Origin: Escherichia phage vB_EcoM_DalCa
Reading direction: 5' to 3' (one strand)
Sequence record: NC_054908.1
DNA: 64,000 nucleotides
Each line of letters starts with the position of its first letter. Positions within the stretch are counted from its first letter, which is position 1. The notes beneath the pieces were generated by a model, which worked only from the letters and a program-made list of their open reading frames with translations, was not told the DNA's origin and did no database searches. A program made the position numbers and the translations under genes. Below are positions 2,418 to 62,725 of the stretch, one piece after another.

Positions 2418-2447
2418 ATTATACCACATCCTTGTGGTAAAGTAAAC
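2418..2447 (-). promoter_or_regulatory. T4-type early promoter for rIIA.1/rIIA
   Basis: minus strand GTTTAC, 18 nt, TATAAT. Confidence 0.6.
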
Positions 2448-4267
2448 TACTGGCTCATCCATTCTTTACGAAGGTCAGCATTATCTCCCATGAGCATTTC
2501 AAAAAGCTCTTTCCAGTTCTCAGGAAGTTTAACAACATCATATACTGGGTTTTGAATCATCTCACGATATTCAGATTTTTCCAAAGAGCCAAGTCCTTTA
2601 ATATAACGGATGCTATGTTTAGGTAGAGCATCTTTGGCACTCTCATATTCAGCGACTGTATAAAACCATTCTTGTTTTTTACCAATCTGAGCGATGATTA
2701 CAGGAGTTTTGACAAAACGAATTCGTCCTTGCTCAAACAATTCTGGCCAATTACTAAAAAATCCAAGCAGAGAAGGATAAATGCTTCCTAGGCCATCATG
2801 GTCAGCATCAGTCATAATAGCGATATTATGATAATTCAAGTTTTCAGCTTTTTCACCGAGAACTAATCCAGTGATTGCGCAAATATCAAATAGTTCTTTG
2901 TTTTTAAGCATATCTGCATAAGACATACCCCAACTGTTGAGAACTTTACCACGTAATGGATAACCACCGTGAAGTTCTTTATCACGAACATCAATAAGAT
3001 ATCCGATAGCCGAATCACCCTCAGTCAAGAAAAGAGTAGTATCAGCATCTTTACCACAAAGATTCGCTTTAATATGTTTATGAACCTTAGCTTTAGAAGC
3101 CTTTTTAGCTGCTTTAGTTTCTGCTGCTTTTTCTGCCGCCAATTTACGAGCCAAAGCAGCTTCAATAATTGGCATCAGAATTGCTTCATTATTCAAAATA
3201 GCACGTGAAATCTTTTTAGCGTCAAGTTGAATATGACTACGAATTTCGCCAAATGGAGAAGTCAAACGCTCTTTAGTTTGAGAATCAAATCGCATGTTTT
3301 TCATATCACGAACAAACATAACGATAGTCAAACATTCTTTGACACGCGCTTTAGTTACATCAATTTTGAACTTACGTTTGATTTGTGGAATAAGGTCTTC
3401 ACAAATATCATCCATAACACAGTCAATGTGATGGCCACCATTCTTAGTGTGAATGTTATTGACGTATGTTAATTGACGAAAACCATCCGGTGAACGACCA
3501 ACCGCAATAGAACAATTTTCTTGTTCTTGAACGATAGCATGCTCATCATATTGGCGTGCATATTTCTTAAAATTGCCCTGAACCTTTTTACCATTAAAGG
3601 TAAATTGAATATCAGGATAAACTACTGCAAGTGTCTGGAGACGGTCCAGTGTAATGTCAAGATAAACCTGAGACAGCTCATTAGTTTCAAATGACATAAA
3701 ATCAGGAATGAAAGTAACACGAGTTCCTTTCCATTTTCCAGGAATATCTTCCCATGATTTATTTTCCATGCCATTTGAACAACGAACTACAATATTATTT
3801 TGACCATCACCAGTTTCACCGACAAACATCACAGAAAAAATGTTTGTCAAACTAGAACCAACACCATTCATACCGCCAGTGACGCGTTCTTTATCATCAC
3901 CAAAGTTACCACCTGCTTTTGGAATAGTCCACGCAGCAACAGGACCAGGAATTTCTTCACCGGTAGGTGTTTTGACCATCGCTTGTGGAATACCACGACC
4001 GTTATCTTCAACTGTTACTTGATTGTTTTTAATAGTAACATTAATTTTATTTGCGAATTTAAACTTAGTACGAATACCTTCATCTACTGAGTTATCGATA
4101 ATTTCATCAATAAGCTTAACAAGACCAGGTACATACTGAACACTTTCCCATTTACCAAACAGAAAGCGCTCATGCATTTCATTAGCAGAAGAGCCAATAT
4201 ACATGCCACTACGCTTTTTGATATGCTCAATATCGCTCAGAATTTTAATTTCATTCTTAATCATCAC
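2447..4267 (-). CDS. 39: DNA topoisomerase II large subunit, unsplit gp39 (GyrB-like ATPase + Toprim)
   Basis: 606 aa; GHKL ATPase motif VEDNGRGIP, Toprim motifs EGDSA and IMTDADHDG in one continuous frame. Confidence 0.9.
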   Translation of the reverse strand: MMIKNEIKILSDIEHIKKRSGMYIGSSANEMHERFLFGKWESVQYVPGLVKLIDEIIDNSVDEGIRTKFKFANKINVTIKNNQVTVEDNGRGIPQAMVKTPTGEEIPGPVAAWTIPKAGGNFGDDKERVTGGMNGVGSSLTNIFSVMFVGETGDGQNNIVVRCSNGMENKSWEDIPGKWKGTRVTFIPDFMSFETNELSQVYLDITLDRLQTLAVVYPDIQFTFNGKKVQGNFKKYARQYDEHAIVQEQENCSIAVGRSPDGFRQLTYVNNIHTKNGGHHIDCVMDDICEDLIPQIKRKFKIDVTKARVKECLTIVMFVRDMKNMRFDSQTKERLTSPFGEIRSHIQLDAKKISRAILNNEAILMPIIEAALARKLAAEKAAETKAAKKASKAKVHKHIKANLCGKDADTTLFLTEGDSAIGYLIDVRDKELHGGYPLRGKVLNSWGMSYADMLKNKELFDICAITGLVLGEKAENLNYHNIAIMTDADHDGLGSIYPSLLGFFSNWPELFEQGRIRFVKTPVIIAQIGKKQEWFYTVAEYESAKDALPKHSIRYIKGLGSLEKSEYREMIQNPVYDVVKLPENWKELFEMLMGDNADLRKEWMSQ

Positions 4268-4316: not shown

Positions 4317-4334
4317 AAAGGCCCGAAGGCCTTT
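4317..4334 (-). terminator. GC-rich stem-loop with UUCG tetraloop (transcript sense)
   Basis: aaaggcccgaaggccttt on plus strand, before the gene 39 -10 region. Confidence 0.55.
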
Positions 4335-12804: not shown

Positions 12805-12834
12805 ATCATATCATCGTTAGAAAGGAAAGTAAAC
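12805..12834 (-). promoter_or_regulatory. T4-type early promoter upstream of modB
   Basis: minus strand GTTTAC, 18 nt, TATGAT. Confidence 0.5.
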
Positions 12835-14336: not shown

Positions 14337-14674
14337 TCACAAGACGTAGATGAACAACTAGAATCACAAGAACTTCCACATGAATCGCCTGCCCATACAT
14401 GAACAGGAACATTCGTATCATATGAATCAGAACTAGACTGTGTATTCTGCGTATTAGATGATGTAGTAGGTGTTGACCAGCGCCAAGGATTTTTATAATA
14501 TTCTTGGGCTTCTTCATAAGTCATAGTAACTGCTTCTACTGTTCCATCTCCCATATAAACATACTCAACTACAGTTAAAGGAAGGTAGTCATTTGAAATA
14601 GGAACTACACCTTCTCCGGGAGTCGTAGAGAAAAAATCCGTAAAGAAACTTTTAAACCAATTAAAGATAAACAT
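14333..14674 (-). CDS. hypothetical protein with Cys/Ser-rich C-terminal tail
   Basis: 113 aa; C-terminus [18 protein letters not shown]. Confidence 0.45.
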
Positions 14675-14880
14675 TACAAAAAGCCTCTCTTGAATTCGAC
14701 TTGCTTTTCACCATAATCATATCGAATCTCTGCATTAAATTCGACAGAACCATCTGCGTACATCATAAATGAATGCACAATAACTTCTGTAGACCATGGC
14801 TGTAATTCATATTTCTTCATTACATGTCGTGAAATGATAATATCTAAATCTTCATTCGGTTTAATCCAACGATTTAACAT
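14674..14880 (-). CDS. hypothetical protein
   Basis: 68 aa ORF downstream of promoter 14907..14936. Confidence 0.45.
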   Translation of the reverse strand: MLNRWIKPNEDLDIIISRHVMKKYELQPWSTEVIVHSFMMYADGSVEFNAEIRYDYGEKQVEFKRGFL

Positions 14881-14906
14881 AGTGCTCTCCTCTATAAGAT
14901 AATTCT

Positions 14907-14936
14907 ATTATACCATACTCATTTTGGAAAGTAAAC
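14907..14936 (-). promoter_or_regulatory. T4-type early promoter
   Basis: minus strand GTTTAC, 18 nt, TATAAT; just downstream of soc terminator. Confidence 0.6.
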
Positions 14937-14970
14937 CGGTAAAATGAAAAAGGACTCCCGAAGGAGTCCT
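14926..14970 (-). repeat. promoter-plus-hairpin module, copy 1
   Basis: ggaaagtaaaccggtaaaatgaaaaa + hairpin; near-identical copy at 55896..55939. Confidence 0.7.
14951..14970 (-). terminator. stem-loop terminator downstream of soc
   Basis: aggactcccgaaggagtcct; U-run on minus strand; followed by early promoter. Confidence 0.65.
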
Positions 14971-14977
14971 TGAATTA

Positions 14978-15214
14978 TTAACCATCTATTGATGTAGGCG
15001 TAAACATTGCAGCATTCTTAGTTTTCCAGTCAGCTGCATCAGAAACTACAGTAGAATATGCTGCCTTTTCAGAAGGAAAGGTCTGATAATGAGAATTTGC
15101 AATACGATGCTCGTTAGAATAGATTTCAAACGGAACAGAAACTTCCATACCTTTAACTTCTTTGCCTTCACCTGCTGGATGAGTAAAGGTCTTTATATTA
15201 ACGAAACCACCCAT
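14978..15214 (-). CDS. soc: small outer capsid protein Soc
   Basis: 78 aa; HYQTFPSEKAAYSTV segment matches T4 Soc from memory; followed by hairpin terminator. Confidence 0.85.
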   Translation of the reverse strand: MGGFVNIKTFTHPAGEGKEVKGMEVSVPFEIYSNEHRIANSHYQTFPSEKAAYSTVVSDAADWKTKNAAMFTPTSIDG

Positions 15215-20267: not shown

Positions 20268-20630
20268 TTAAAAGAATTTAAACTTTTTCTTTGACCTTTT
20301 ATTGAATGCATCTTGCAGTTGCATTGTAATACATTTTTCTACATGAGGAGCTAACTCAGCTTTTCTTTCTTGGTCAAGAACAGCAAAGTCCATTACAACC
20401 TTTCCATCAACCCAATCCAGTTTAGTTACATACACTATATGTGTAGAACCATCTTCTAGTTTAATGACAATCTCCTGGATAACATTTTCCATGGCAGATT
20501 TAATTATCTTAAGAGACTCATTAAAAAGACGTTCTTTTCTTTCTTCTTCCCCCTCCGAAGAGGGGGATTCATCGATAATTTCTAGATCTAAATCTAAATC
20601 ATCTTTATTCATTAAATTCTTCCATATCAC
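20268..20630 (-). CDS. 40: gp40 head vertex assembly chaperone
   Basis: 120 aa ORF between uvsX and 41 as in T4. Confidence 0.65.
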   Translation of the reverse strand: MIWKNLMNKDDLDLDLEIIDESPSSEGEEERKERLFNESLKIIKSAMENVIQEIVIKLEDGSTHIVYVTKLDWVDGKVVMDFAVLDQERKAELAPHVEKCITMQLQDAFNKRSKKKFKFF

Positions 20631-25127: not shown

Positions 25128-25153
25128 ATCCGTATCAGTAGTTGATAGTTGTA

Positions 25154-25182
25154 TAGTACCATGGAAGAACAGTCTTGTAAAC
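25154..25182 (-). promoter_or_regulatory. T4-type early promoter
   Basis: minus strand GTTTAC, 17 nt, TACTAT; part of repeated module. Confidence 0.55.
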
Positions 25183-27995: not shown

Positions 27996-28055
27996 AGATA
28001 TTCCTTAGTTTATAGCCCGAGTTATTAGGCTCTTGATATATTATACTCCAAATAA

Positions 28056-28069
28056 GGGGCCGAAGCCCC
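28056..28069 (-). terminator. stem-loop between regA-side ORF and gene 43
   Basis: ggggccgaagcccc; UUCG loop on transcript. Confidence 0.55.
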
Positions 28070-28073
28070 TTGC

Positions 28074-30191: not shown

Positions 30192-30226
30192 AATTTCCTC
30201 ATTCAAGTTTTAGTGTAAATTATAAA

Positions 30227-30238
30227 GGGCCGAAGCCC
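30227..30238 (-). terminator. stem-loop between genes 45 and 44
   Basis: gggccgaagccc. Confidence 0.5.
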
Positions 30239-30242
30239 TCTA

Positions 30243-30929
30243 TTAAAAATCGTGGGTAGAATCAGCTTCAAGAGCTACTACATAATTCGCGTGTTCACCT
30301 TCAAATTTAGCAGCACCTTGTTTACCTTTTGCCCAGAGCAGAAGTTTATAATTTCCTGGTTGCATTTTCATATTTGCCATATTGATAATGAAATTAAATG
30401 TATTTTCACCATCATAATCACCAAGAGTCAAAGAATATTTAACACGGGTCAGAGCAGAATCTTCTACTTTATTAAAACCGTTAATTACGATTTTACCTTC
30501 TTTTACCGTGATAGCAATTGTATCAATTTGCAGACCACGAGATACACGCAACAGTTGTTGAAGGTCTTCAGCTTTAATTTCAGTAACAACAGATGCTACC
30601 GGAAATGGAATTGGTTTATTAGGAGCAACTACTGTACTCGGATCGGCTGCTGGCCAAAAAATTGTTGAACGAGCATCAGCAATTTTAATATTTCCATCTT
30701 CTGACTGGGAAATTTCTGCATCATCATTAACTAGCGACAGAATACCGAGAAAACCGTTCAAATCGTAAATTGCTACATCAAAATCAATAACGTCAGAAAT
30801 ATTTGCTTCCGCGTAAGTTGTACCATTAACTGCGCGAGTCATAATAAATTGACCGGATTTAAGCATAATGCCAGAGTTAATAGTAGCGAAATTTTTCAAA
30901 ATATTCAGTGTATCTTTAGACAGTTTCAT
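30243..30929 (-). CDS. 45: sliding clamp gp45
   Basis: 228 aa as T4 gp45; position upstream of 44/62. Confidence 0.85.
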   Translation of the reverse strand: MKLSKDTLNILKNFATINSGIMLKSGQFIMTRAVNGTTYAEANISDVIDFDVAIYDLNGFLGILSLVNDDAEISQSEDGNIKIADARSTIFWPAADPSTVVAPNKPIPFPVASVVTEIKAEDLQQLLRVSRGLQIDTIAITVKEGKIVINGFNKVEDSALTRVKYSLTLGDYDGENTFNFIINMANMKMQPGNYKLLLWAKGKQGAAKFEGEHANYVVALEADSTHDF

Positions 30930-34773: not shown

Positions 34774-34934
34774 ATATCAAGAACCGTCATTGAAATGCAA
34801 AATAAAATTATTGAAATAAATCCATCTGGAGTGCTAAAGAACCCAATCCAACATGCTCTAGTGAATAGATAAAATGCAAGAAAAAGTATCACATATCCAA
34901 GAAATATCATTATATCAAACTCCGTATAAAGCTA

Positions 34935-34950
34935 AAGGGCCGAAGCCCTT
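34935..34950 (-). terminator. stem-loop at 3' end of alpha-gt
   Basis: aagggccgaagccctt overlapping the stop codon. Confidence 0.55.
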
Positions 34951-36152
34951 TATTTTGTAATAATGTCAAACTGTTCTTTAAAACAGAAGCTTGAATCTTG
35001 GTGCTGATACAAAAATTCATATGCTTTTTCTCGCTCACGGTCATAAAGAGCTCGGTCAGATGACAGTTCTTTAATACGTTCAAATGTTGATTCCATATCA
35101 TTTTCATCAAACCAAATGATACCGCTATCATGCGAGGTCAAAGGAGTATTATCAACACGGAATTTTAAATTTTCGCCAGTAGATTTCCAAAATACCGGAA
35201 TTGTTCCACACGCGCCAAGCTCGAGATGAGTATATTCTAAAGAACGTTGTAGATATTTTTTATCCAACTTACTCAACTGATAACCAAAACCGGATTTACT
35301 CATACGTTCAAGCATTTCGCTATTTACATAACGGTCAAGAATTTGCGTTGGCAAATTAGGAGCAATTTTAATTTGGTCTACTTGATGAAGACGATAATAC
35401 TCGTATGGAATTCCTTTTTCTTTAATAGGAATGAACGCTGGAGAACGTTCCAGACCTTCCATAATAGTACTTAGTCCTGCAGGTTTAAGATGTTTTTCAT
35501 GAAAATCAAACATCTGATAAAAACCTTTCCATGTAGTCGTACGACCAATCCAACGGTTGATATTCATGTTAATTTCAGAAACATCTTTCCAGTAGGTTGA
35601 TCGAACCTTCGCAATATCCATCGGAGGCTGAAAGTTATATACTGTCGGTGCTTCTTCAATATCATCAAACAGAGAAACTGTTTCTGGATACCATTCTTTC
35701 ATCAGAACTTTATTAAAATCGCCATTATCAGAATGGCTAAAAATAACATCAGCTCGACGAACAGTTTCTTCTAATCCCAAATTTCGACGCAAAGAAAGAG
35801 AAGAATGGTCATGTTGATAAACTACAACACGAACCGAAGGTTTAATGTTATCAATAATTTTTTTATAGTTATTAATAGTGTCTTCTTCAACTGAAGTAAC
35901 AGGAACTGAATTGATAATTAGAATATCACAATCATTTACCAGCTTAAGTGTTTTATCGTATTCTTTTGCCAATAAAACCGGAATTGAAAATGATTTATAA
36001 TCATGTGCACAGTTACGAGTAAATGATTTATCTTTAGCATAAACCAAAGTTACTTCATGACCATTTTTAATAAACCAATCACGTTGCTCAAGAGAAAATT
36101 TAGTTACACCACAACCTTCAAGACCTCGAGCCATAAAAATACATACTTTCAT
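34950..36152 (-). CDS. agt: DNA alpha-glucosyltransferase
   Basis: 400 aa as T4 alpha-gt; N-terminus resembles remembered T4 AGT; position between 47 and 55. Confidence 0.8.
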   Translation of the reverse strand: MKVCIFMARGLEGCGVTKFSLEQRDWFIKNGHEVTLVYAKDKSFTRNCAHDYKSFSIPVLLAKEYDKTLKLVNDCDILIINSVPVTSVEEDTINNYKKIIDNIKPSVRVVVYQHDHSSLSLRRNLGLEETVRRADVIFSHSDNGDFNKVLMKEWYPETVSLFDDIEEAPTVYNFQPPMDIAKVRSTYWKDVSEINMNINRWIGRTTTWKGFYQMFDFHEKHLKPAGLSTIMEGLERSPAFIPIKEKGIPYEYYRLHQVDQIKIAPNLPTQILDRYVNSEMLERMSKSGFGYQLSKLDKKYLQRSLEYTHLELGACGTIPVFWKSTGENLKFRVDNTPLTSHDSGIIWFDENDMESTFERIKELSSDRALYDREREKAYEFLYQHQDSSFCFKEQFDIITK

Positions 36153-36204
36153 TTAATATCCTCTTTGTTTTGGTTTATTTTACCAAAATTTTATAAAGCA
36201 ATAT

Positions 36205-36220
36205 AGGAGCCGAAGCTCCT
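36205..36220 (-). terminator. stem-loop upstream of alpha-gt
   Basis: aggagccgaagctcct. Confidence 0.5.
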
Positions 36221-36395
36221 ATCCACATAATACGCCATACAGAGGCTCATTAGAACTTTTAAATTTTATGCGCTTATATTTTATAGTTCCTTCTGCTTTA
36301 GCTTTATCATGAGACGCTTTAAAGAGTCTCATCATTTCCTCTTTAGAGGAACGAATTTTATTATAATCTATTTCAGAAGTCTGGGTGTTCATCTT

Positions 36396-39425: not shown

Positions 39426-39455
39426 AATAATACCACAGTTTGAACTTGTTGTAAA
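39426..39455 (-). promoter_or_regulatory. T4-type early promoter
   Basis: minus strand GTTTAC, 18 nt, TATTAT. Confidence 0.55.
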
Positions 39456-47409: not shown

Positions 47410-47439
47410 ATTATACCACATCCTTGTGGCGAAGTAAAC
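47410..47439 (-). promoter_or_regulatory. T4-type early promoter
   Basis: minus strand GTTTAC, 18 nt, TATAAT; near-identical to promoter at 2418..2447. Confidence 0.6.
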
Positions 47440-50380: not shown

Positions 50381-50410
50381 ATAGTATCACAGAGGAACAG
50401 TCTTGTAAAC
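50381..50410 (-). promoter_or_regulatory. T4-type early promoter
   Basis: minus strand GTTTAC, 18 nt, TACTAT. Confidence 0.55.
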
Positions 50411-51820: not shown

Positions 51821-51850
51821 ATAATATCACACTACTACCCTGCTGTAAAC
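51821..51850 (-). promoter_or_regulatory. T4-type early promoter upstream of ATPase gene
   Basis: minus strand GTTTAC, 18 nt, TATTAT. Confidence 0.5.
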
Positions 51851-51853
51851 AAT

Positions 51854-52117
51854 TTATTTTAATGTTTGCCAAATTTTTACTGCTTCACGACGAGATACTT
51901 CTACAGCTCCAAGTTCTACAGCTTTTTGGCGTCGCCGAGCGTGTAAGTCATAATGTTTAATGCGTTTATCTTGAAACCAAGAACGTTTCATTCCTATTGC
52001 TTCTGCCATTTCGTGAAGCTCTTCAATATCTCCATCAGTGAACATATGACAATTTTTAGTTGGATGACCGCGAAGTTTCCATCCATGATTCATTAAAACA
52101 TCTACGTAAACTGTCAT
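51854..52117 (-). CDS. hypothetical protein
   Basis: 87 aa ORF. Confidence 0.45.
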   Translation of the reverse strand: MTVYVDVLMNHGWKLRGHPTKNCHMFTDGDIEELHEMAEAIGMKRSWFQDKRIKHYDLHARRRQKAVELGAVEVSRREAVKIWQTLK

Positions 52118-52263
52118 TGATTCTTCTCCAAATAAGTTTCGATAATTTTCTGGGCGAGATAAACCGCGTTATCTTCAGTTGCGTCTTCCAAGAAACTTTC
52201 AAAACACTCTGAAATTTCTTCTGTATCAATCAACTTTTTTACTTCAATTGGTGTAATTTTCAT
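52114..52263 (-). CDS. small hypothetical protein
   Basis: 49 aa ORF read by hand (MKITPIEVKKLIDTEE...), ATGA overlap with downstream start. Confidence 0.35.
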   Translation of the reverse strand: MKITPIEVKKLIDTEEISECFESFLEDATEDNAVYLAQKIIETYLEKNQ

Positions 52264-52299: not shown

Positions 52300-52329
52300 A
52301 TAGTACCATAAAGCTTTATGCTTGTAAAC
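52300..52329 (-). promoter_or_regulatory. T4-type early promoter
   Basis: minus strand GTTTAC, 18 nt, TACTAT; directly after terminator 52359..52376. Confidence 0.55.
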
Positions 52330-52358
52330 AGTTTTGTGAAAAATTTTTGAAATAAAAA

Positions 52359-52376
52359 GGGAGCCCGAAGGCTCCC
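52359..52376 (-). terminator. stem-loop terminator downstream of nucleotidyltransferase gene
   Basis: gggagcccgaaggctccc followed by U-run and early promoter on minus strand. Confidence 0.65.
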
Positions 52377-52378
52377 TA

Positions 52379-55456: not shown

Positions 55457-55696
55457 TTAAACTCTAGTATTATGATCGATAATTTCATCAAGAAACATAT
55501 CTAACGCTTCTAAAGCATTATCAACTTTAGCTTCAAGTTCATCAATGCCTTTATTTGCAATGCCTGACGAAAACCAAGCAAAGTCACTAAGTTCCTCGTC
55601 TGCTTTACGAATTAAAGCTACCAATTCTTTAATCTTATCCGCTTGTTCGATACTAATCATTATTCCACCACATATGAAAGAGAGAATATTGCACAC
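55457..55696 (-). CDS. hypothetical protein
   Basis: 79 aa ORF; start may be internal Met. Confidence 0.4.
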
Positions 55697-55848
55697 GCCA
55701 TGTGAGTTGCAACTTCATCACACATATTATAACGTTTCTTAAGAAGTTCTACAAGTTCTTCACTAGTAACTTCATCCATGTTGACGAAAAAATCACCATT
55801 AATGATGACGTAGATATTTCCTTCATGATTAAGTGCTTCAATTTTCAT
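55660..55848 (-). CDS. hypothetical protein
   Basis: ORF-track ORF to 55893; start at Met [10 protein letters not shown] with GAGGAG RBS, downstream of promoter 55877..55906. Confidence 0.4.
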
Positions 55849-55876
55849 GATGTTCTCCTCTTTATCCGATGGTTGT

Positions 55877-55906
55877 ATAGTACCACAGCTCAAACGGAAA
55901 GTAAAC
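55877..55906 (-). promoter_or_regulatory. T4-type early promoter
   Basis: minus strand GTTTAC, 18 nt, TACTAT; directly after terminator 55922..55939. Confidence 0.55.
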
Positions 55907-55939
55907 CGGTAAAATGAAAAAAGTCTCCCGAAGGAGACT
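55896..55939 (-). repeat. promoter-plus-hairpin module, copy 2
   Basis: first 26 nt identical to 14926..14951; hairpin stem differs by paired compensatory changes. Confidence 0.7.
55922..55939 (-). terminator. stem-loop terminator downstream of rI.-1-like gene
   Basis: agtctcccgaaggagact; same module as 14951..14970 with compensatory stem changes. Confidence 0.65.
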
Positions 55940-55943
55940 AATG

Positions 55944-56330
55944 TTATTCGAGGGAAAGAAGATACTTACTTTGGTAAAACATTCCAGTAATATCATCTAT
56001 CGTGCTTTGGATGGCTGGAGGCATTTCTTTATAAATGCTGTTAGATTGGTCTAGTATACGATCAATCATTTTAATTGTGTCGGTAGGAAGTTTACTGGCA
56101 TCTGGAATTGAAGGCGTGTATTTTCTACCAGAATACCCCAAATATTGCTCACCAAATTTATCAATCAAATCTGGTAACTCAGAGAAAATAAAATCGTATG
56201 CTTTGTGTCTAGCATAACTTTTAGTTTCAAAATGTGCAGAATGAAAATAAGCTTGTGCAGCCATTAATAAACCTAAGTATTCATCTGCCTTTGAAGGTTT
56301 TCCACTTTGTGAAAAGTCGCTGAATTTCAT
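55944..56330 (-). CDS. hypothetical protein (rI.-1-like)
   Basis: 128 aa ORF immediately downstream of rI. Confidence 0.5.
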
Positions 56331-62694: not shown

Positions 62695-62725
62695 TATACT
62701 ATCACAATTCTAGGAGAAAGTAAAC
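62695..62725 (-). promoter_or_regulatory. T4-type early promoter upstream of denV
   Basis: minus strand GTTTAC then TAGTATATT. Confidence 0.5.

Follow-up and report, generated by a model that had tools for sequence, protein, structure and literature searches.

The window analysed in this work was a stretch of 64,000 nucleotides from Escherichia phage vB_EcoM_DalCa (sequence record NC_054908.1), in which nearly all genes lie on the minus strand. It displayed 95-99% identity with many Tequatrovirus (T4-like) genomes and was collinear with the first ~64 kb of T4, and we assign the phage to the T4-like Tequatrovirus. Two minus-strand intergenic spans, referred to as copies A and B, share a repeated module. 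Copy A occupies the interval between soc and mrh.2, from the soc stop (14978) to the mrh.2 ATG (14880), and copy B between rI.-1 and mobD.5, from the rI.-1 stop (55944) to the mobD.5 ATG (55848). The gene upstream of A (14978-15214, minus strand; TAA stop at 14978-14980) was taken from the list of open reading frames and is annotated as soc, the small outer capsid protein, in related phage records; the one upstream of B is rI.-1 (55944-56330, minus strand; stop codon at 55944-55946). On the other side, a GAGGAG Shine-Dalgarno sequence (14887-14892) precedes the mrh.2 coding sequence (14674-14880; together 14674-14892, minus strand), and another (55855-55860) precedes that of mobD.5 (ATG at 55848, end at 55660; together 55660-55860, minus strand).

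The layout was the same in both copies, running in the direction of transcription from the stop codon through a C(UUCG)G hairpin, a U tract, a -35 element, 17 bp, TGn, a -10 element and a Shine-Dalgarno sequence to the ATG. Hairpin A (AAGGACTCC-UUCG-GGAGUCCUU, with a DNA 3' arm GGAGTCCTT; 14950-14971, minus strand) begins 6 nt past the soc stop and is made up of a 5' arm at 14971-14963, a loop at 14962-14959 and a 3' arm at 14958-14950; a terminator consensus scan listed it with a 4-nt loop and a stem of 9 pairs, of which 5 are G-C. Hairpin B (AGUCUCC-UUCG-GGAGACU, then UUUUUUCAUUUU; 55922-55939, minus strand) begins 4 nt past the rI.-1 stop and has a stem of 7 pairs, of which 4 are G-C, and a T6CAT4 tail. 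On the transcribed strand of both, a C-G pair closes the UUCG loop, and an 11-12 nt U-rich tail directly follows the stem. Fold energies were -15.1 kcal/mol for A (z = -4.0) and -10.8 kcal/mol for B (z = -2.7), the stability of the latter exceeding that of shuffled sequence only moderately. The G+C-rich stem, the short loop and the U tract 0-2 nt off the stem make each of the two hairpins a predicted intrinsic terminator, and a scan of the whole window at Rfam gathering scores matched no family.

The candidate early promoter of mrh.2 (14907-14935, minus strand) combines the -35 hexamer TTTACT (14935-14930), a 17-bp spacer, TGn and the -10 hexamer TATAAT (14912-14907), and its start site would fall near 14900. 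That of mobD.5 (55877-55905, minus strand) has the same TTTACT (55905-55900), a 17-bp spacer, TGn and TACTAT (55882-55877). The features of T4 early promoters (GTTTAC, 17-bp spacer, TGn, TAnnnT and an A/T-rich upstream region) could thus be recognised at both places, in each case 11 nt beyond the terminator U tract. As a class, the early promoters of T4 are active at once after infection, with no need of phage proteins. In a review they are presented as promoters that combine the elements UP/-35/TGn/-10. The hairpin ends 14 nt (A) or 16 nt (B) before the -35 hexamer; GAGGAG follows the -10 after about 14-16 nt and is itself followed by the ATG after 6 nt in both copies. When the start site was taken ~7 nt beyond the -10, the hairpin came to ~ -50 to -71 and the T-rich tail to about -37 to -50; the tail thus occupies the A/T-rich zone of the UP element, and the same bases would probably serve both signals.

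The first-pass annotation had described a promoter-hairpin module at 14926..14970 recurring at 55896..55939 with the first 26 nt identical. The recurrence was reproduced: the exact 26-mer (minus strand, TTTTTCATTTTACCGGTTTACTTTCC) was found in the window only at 14926-14951 and 55896-55921, both on the minus strand, and a 41-nt pattern formed by the inner stem, the loop, the 3' arm and the 26-mer matched, with up to three mismatches, these two sites only (0.00 expected from dinucleotide-preserving shuffles), so that the likeness of A and B is far beyond chance. Three details of the description could be refined. Hairpin A extends one base further, to 14971; the identical 26 nt contain the U tract (UUUUUCAUUUU), the linker ACCG and the -35 region (GTTTAC plus TTTCC) but not the whole promoter; and along transcription the hairpin precedes the promoter and ends the upstream gene. 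As had also been claimed, two of the seven stem pairs shared by the copies differ (G-C to A-U and A-U to U-A) on both arms and are still Watson-Crick. The probability that 4 neutral substitutions on 14 stem positions form two full complementary pairs was roughly estimated at 21/1001 x (1/3)^2, or about 0.002.

The similarity of A and B was also compared with that among all 15 early-promoter-like sites of the minus strand (105 pairs). Upstream of the -35 their identity was 0.92, the highest of the 105 pairs (family mean 0.38, sd 0.14), whereas between the -35 and the -10 it was ordinary (0.62 vs. a mean of 0.59), and from the spacer on the two copies are as unlike as any two early promoters. 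This indicated that the repeated unit consists of terminator, linker and -35. A mobile-element (MITE-like) reading was discarded, as terminal repeats and target duplications were not found around the copies and the similarity ends 5 nt past the -35. The likeness might instead come from a common constraint on U tract, -35 consensus and UUCG loop with neither common ancestry nor exchange, as other genera also have the T tract and an interrupted C(A/G)TTT tail at these two loci, and as GTTTACTTTCC is present also at the promoter at 12805-12833, leaving few free positions. We consider this improbable in view of the 0.92 identity upstream of the -35, of a linker (ACCG) unlike the AA(A/G)(C/T)T usual in the family, and of an inner stem (CTCC/GGAG) confined to A, B and a T4 copy after gene 30.9. 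In addition, Gaprivervirus VR26 and phage G8 have dissimilar loci A and B, which shows that identity is not forced by constraint alone.

The module is already known in T4-like phages, and the observation is correct but ordinary. In T4 record X01416.1, at the same locus as A, the palindrome is labelled 'put. transcription termination t 15.02' and is followed by the -35/-10 of 'P(E) 14.98'; record U76612.1, at the same locus as B, bears the labels 'terminator', 'minus_35_signal' and 'early promoter 57.9'. The annotation of one of these T4 loci dates from the earliest T4 sequencing. Hairpin A, hairpin B and the copy-B 26-mer are identical in T4 and in the window. MK327937 also marks hairpin A as 'terminator', and newer genome records do so automatically. 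The CUUCGG hairpin itself is said to have been discovered in T4 mRNA by Tuerk et al. in 1988. The C(UUCG)G hairpins of T4 mRNA (summarised in PMC4371310) have the same UUCG loop, C-G closure, intergenic position and location on the transcribed strand, A and B corresponding to the subset that bears a U tract. As compared to bacterial intrinsic terminators, A and B have similar features (4-5 G-C pairs, a 4-nt loop, a U-rich tail from the stem end), but their tail overlaps the upstream-element zone of the next promoter, an arrangement tighter than in most bacterial operons.

Cassettes of this kind form the PeSL (promoter-early stem-loop) class (Arbiol et al. 2010, PMC2839356; Comeau et al. 2014, PMC4122927), which in T4 and PST has the form of a stem-loop just upstream of TTTACW-N17-TAYWAT, near indels (PMC2839356, PMC4122927). 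The cassettes of RB49 displayed both terminator and promoter activity in reporter assays and recombined with one another (PMC2839356). Like PeSL, copies A and B lie between genes of the same orientation, have a stem-loop at short distance before a sigma-70-type promoter (TTTACT-17-TATAAT in A, TTTACT-17-TACTAT in B, with TGn in both) and an A/T-rich stretch (TTTTTCATTTTA) upstream of the -35, and carry GAGGAG and ATG at the 3' end. PeSL cassettes are likewise found at the boundaries of indels and replacements, with crossovers between the -10 and the Shine-Dalgarno sequence; the corresponding boundaries in the window were found at A and at the modules 52328 and 51849, and B lacks a boundary with respect to T4. 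Two differences were observed. The stems of A and B are of the CUUCGG type, in contrast with the G-run/C-run stems of RB49, and A and B, as direct repeats, are separated by 41 kb, whereas the mini-circles of RB49 are excised between neighbouring cassettes; such excision cannot give viable deletions here, since essential replication genes lie between the copies. Judged by sequence features, every one of those by which PeSL cassettes are recognised was found, and A and B differ in nothing essential from the class.

That the RNA hairpin itself is under selection had been proposed from the two copies. Their alignment and folding agree with the proposal, the stem changes remaining paired and both copies folding as predicted, and the claim is supported, although the two-copy comparison is thin on its own (two paired changes between paralogues) and the loci of other phages are stronger. 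In IMG/VR, the exact 26-mer matched only 7 stretches on 5 contigs. As this does not suffice for an analysis at the population level, loci anchored on proteins were used instead; in those found with Soc, this protein was 79-96% identical to that of the window. C(TTCG)G was kept at all soc-downstream loci (16 from IMG/VR plus T4 and G10400), with stems GGACTCC/GGAGTCC, GGAATCC/GGATTCC (C-G to A-U), GGAATCC/GGGTTCC (a U.G intermediate), GGAACC/GGTTCC and GGGAACC/GGTTCCC. The rI.-1 junction of Moonvirus, Karamvirus, Jiaodavirus, Dhakavirus, Gaprivervirus and Bragavirus keeps the stop, the hairpin, the T tract, GTTTAC...TACTAT, the Shine-Dalgarno sequence and the ATG, and the stem sequences of these six genera are unrelated; the loop is UUCG in three of them and UACG, UUAU or UUUU in the others. 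Every related genus examined has a hairpin, a U tract and an early promoter at both junctions, and the stem sequences vary.

When 10 distinct hairpins (from locus A of other phages, locus B and the third T4 copy) were aligned on their loops, in an alignment that combines stems of differing lengths, 93.3% of the cells were paired vs. 75.4 +/- 2.8% after shuffling, and none of 500 shuffles reached as high a value. Changes on both sides were present in 4 of the 9 pairs, and pairing fell to 33-66% when partner columns were slid. Hairpin B is invariant within Tequatrovirus, so its covariation comes from other genera only, among which positional homology of the stems is not demonstrable. Each Watson-Crick-compensated change also preserves the DNA palindrome, and the palindrome could therefore act as DNA, either by forming a cruciform, by binding a protein or as a site dedicated to recombination, with dyad symmetry being kept by the paired changes; Arbiol et al. 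(PMC2839356) speculated on PeSL stem-loops as targets of DNA-binding recombination proteins. We regard this as very improbable. The G.U pairs found in L014 at locus A and in Dhakavirus, Gaprivervirus and Moonvirus at locus B become A.C mismatches on the opposite strand or in a cruciform, the sense-strand loop is taken as always UUCG or UACG, and the T tract is one-sided. Moreover, of the 14 CTTCGG motifs on the minus strand of the window, 10 are embedded in a hairpin of 6 bp or more, as against none of the 16 on the plus strand, so that all 10 hairpin-embedded motifs lie on the transcribed strand. Pairs allowed on the sense strand only, the UUCG loop and this strand bias argue for selection at the level of the sense-strand RNA, and the compensated stems lead us to conclude that the hairpin structure is selected as such.

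Other cassettes were found in the window. The promoter blocks previously noted near 25131, 39441, 50361 and 52281 are real and correspond to T4-type early promoters at 25153-25181, 39427-39455, 50381-50409 and 52300-52328, all on the minus strand. The first belongs to a AAAATTTTCACAAAACTGTTTACAAG...TGGTACTATACAACTATCAA subfamily, of which the second is a looser member (60-65% identity); over 65 columns, the 25181 block was 80% identical to the third and also 80% identical to the block at 52328. The near-identity attributed to the promoters at 2418 and 47410 held as well, 31 of 34 positions, spacer included, matching between 2418-2446 and 47410-47438 (both minus strand). A third cassette of hairpin plus early promoter (52300-52377, minus strand) consists of the hairpin AGGGAGCC-UUCG-GGCUCCCU (52358-52377), a U tract, a 29-nt A/T-rich linker and the promoter at 52300-52328.

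At 4317-4334, 34933-34952 and 36203-36222 (minus strand), a CUUCGG hairpin without U tract is immediately followed by a MotA-box-like (A/T)GCTTTA and, after ~12 nt, TATAAT or TAAAAT. The arrangement resembles the 'PmSL' of phage nt-1 (Comeau et al. 2014, PMC4122927) and would join a hairpin to a middle promoter. Another 8-bp CUUCGG hairpin without U tract (TCCCCCTC-TTCG-GAGGGGGA; 20548-20567, minus strand) is located within the 5' part of a coding open reading frame (20268-20630) that occupies the place of gene 40 in T4 and comes directly after the uvsX homologue.

The U tract is missing in at least 6 of the 10 strong CUUCGG hairpins of the window (e.g., 36203-36222, 34933-34952, 30222-30243, 28054-28071 and 4317-4334), indicating that this genome uses the motif for something besides termination. 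This, together with the exceptional stability of UUCG hairpins (PMC4371310), favours a reading in which the hairpins would be mainly 3' protective caps or processing barriers, which stabilise the mRNA of the upstream gene against 3' exonucleases, and not terminators, although both roles are compatible. For A and B we find that emphasis rather unlikely, given the canonical U-rich tail of 11-12 nt that adjoins the stem, the designation as terminators by the original T4 depositors and by automatic pipelines, and the termination produced by RB49 PeSL stem-loops in lacZ assays (Arbiol et al. 2010, PMC2839356). Our literature search retrieved no open-access genome-wide map of T4 3' ends and no usable mapping of start sites or terminators; an analysis of the 3' end of soc mRNA is cited, with no coordinates, in a review.

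The identity of the 26 nt between A and B is an allele and not a fixed trait. Thus, locus A of T4 differs at 3 of the 26 positions, clustered in the linker (TTTAAATGG in T4 vs. TTTTACCGG in the window), and the two copies of T4 agree with each other at 23 of 26 positions as compared to 26 of 26 in the window. Exact-word megablast against GenBank retrieved 132 records with the window-type linker, 121 with the T4 type and 39 with an intermediate; these three common alleles of locus A have 0, 3 and 2 differences, respectively, from locus B, which is essentially invariant. Besides A and B, T4 has a third copy of hairpin A and its T tract after gene 30.9, at 10330-10359 of L013 (T4 130330-130359) and followed by a different early promoter. 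The hairpin at this 30.9/30.8 site is identical to hairpin A; the site is not part of the window, and in most related genomes the module matches at three places.

The pattern of alleles fits an exchange of cassette segments between loci, which may have come about by conversion or through ancestry and in either direction. A simple gene conversion of B into A, first suggested by the three-mismatch locus A of T4, was discarded: TTTTACTGG stands at locus A also in L026, a phage further removed, so the window-type linker may be ancestral. Homogenisation of the distant cassettes (soc/mrh.2, rI.-1/mobD.5 and the 30.9/30.8 site) by patchy gene conversion within Tequatrovirus can be put forward only tentatively, and we would not bet on it. 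In three Gaprivervirus-like loci downstream of soc (L020, L023 and L024, at about 1735-1800), TGGTATAAT comes after the hairpin and T tract and the -35 element is missing, a truncated form that corresponds to the 'half' cassettes mentioned by Comeau et al. 2014 (PMC4122927).

The suggestion that such repeats are recombination substrates was supported by a mosaic boundary at A, by the independent assortment of cassette segments and soc alleles, and by an insert flanked by two promoter modules, in agreement with the PeSL model in the literature (PMC2839356, PMC4122927). Nucleotide identity between the window and T4 was 0.45-0.65 across soc (0.88 in one comparison interval), rose to 0.93 or more at hairpin A and the stop codon of soc, and remained at 0.93-1.00 through hairpin A and mrh.2. 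An initial view, taken from BLAST blocks, that A is not at a breakpoint with T4 was overturned by this base-level alignment. The Soc proteins of the window and T4 are only 47% identical, and the divergent soc allele (14978-15214, minus strand) stands beside DNA on the mrh.2 side that is 95-100% identical to T4. At copy B, the identity profile revealed no mosaic boundary with T4. Among relatives, the hairpin type, the linker type and the soc allele assort in differing combinations.

Two small open reading frames of 49 and 87 amino acids (52114-52263 and 51854-52117, minus strand), located between nrdC.11 and nrdC.10, are absent from T4. T4 has there a lone cassette, whose 5' part, from the hairpin to just past the -10, matches the window at 52300-52377, and whose 3' part, from the Shine-Dalgarno sequence onward, matches the early promoter module at the downstream edge of the insert (51821-51849, minus strand); the two extra reading frames intervene. 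The crossover would thus have fallen between the -10 and the Shine-Dalgarno site, the type sequenced in RB49 mini-circles (Arbiol et al. 2010, PMC2839356). The association of indel breakpoints with promoters is confounded, as an inserted gene must in any case land between genes.

Other differences from T4 were noted along the window. A single open reading frame of 606 amino acids (2447-4267, minus strand) stands where T4 has the split genes 39 and 60, and the large subunit of the topoisomerase is therefore unsplit in the window phage; a T4 segment of 1117 bp with the translational-bypass region of gene 60, 60.1 and mobA is absent. Segments present only in T4 at the junctions 15093/15624, 21774/23343, 36143/36168, 40965/40945, 42241/42244 and 53393/54362 coincide with homing-endonuclease genes and an intron (segF, segA, mobB, mobC, the I-TevII intron in nrdD, and mobD), and the window phage appears to be devoid of these genes and of the nrdD intron. 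At the 62674/62681 junction, which adjoins an early promoter at 62696-62724, the ~1.1-kb ipII/ipIII internal-protein segment of T4 is missing; this locus is a known hot spot of shuffling according to Repoila 1994, as cited in PMC4122927.

We consider it very probable that the two copies are compact intergenic cassettes of a T4-like phage in which a terminator is fused to an early promoter and which are used as crossover points. In such a cassette, the C(UUCG)G hairpin with its U tract would stop the transcripts that arrive from soc (A) or rI.-1 (B), and a T4-type sigma-70 early promoter, apparently strong, would restart it for mrh.2 at A and mobD.5 at B, the T-rich tail probably contributing to both signals. 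The stem would change only by compensated substitutions because the hairpin works as RNA. Since many cassettes share 30-60 bp of sequence, the very active homologous recombination of T4 would use them as crossover points, giving rise to insertions and replacements of gene cassettes and probably to patches of sequence homogenisation between cassettes.

Copies A and B are thus a textbook example of how T4-like phages insulate small gene cassettes with a terminator fused to a promoter, and of how common signals of 30-60 bp may double as crossover points for gene swaps between phages, the soc/mrh.2 edge at hairpin A being a clean illustration of modular exchange. For annotation and engineering, these cassettes mark boundaries of transcription units and safe insertion points. 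If the reading of concerted change were true, the regulatory cassettes of T4-like phages would evolve in concert across tens of kilobases.
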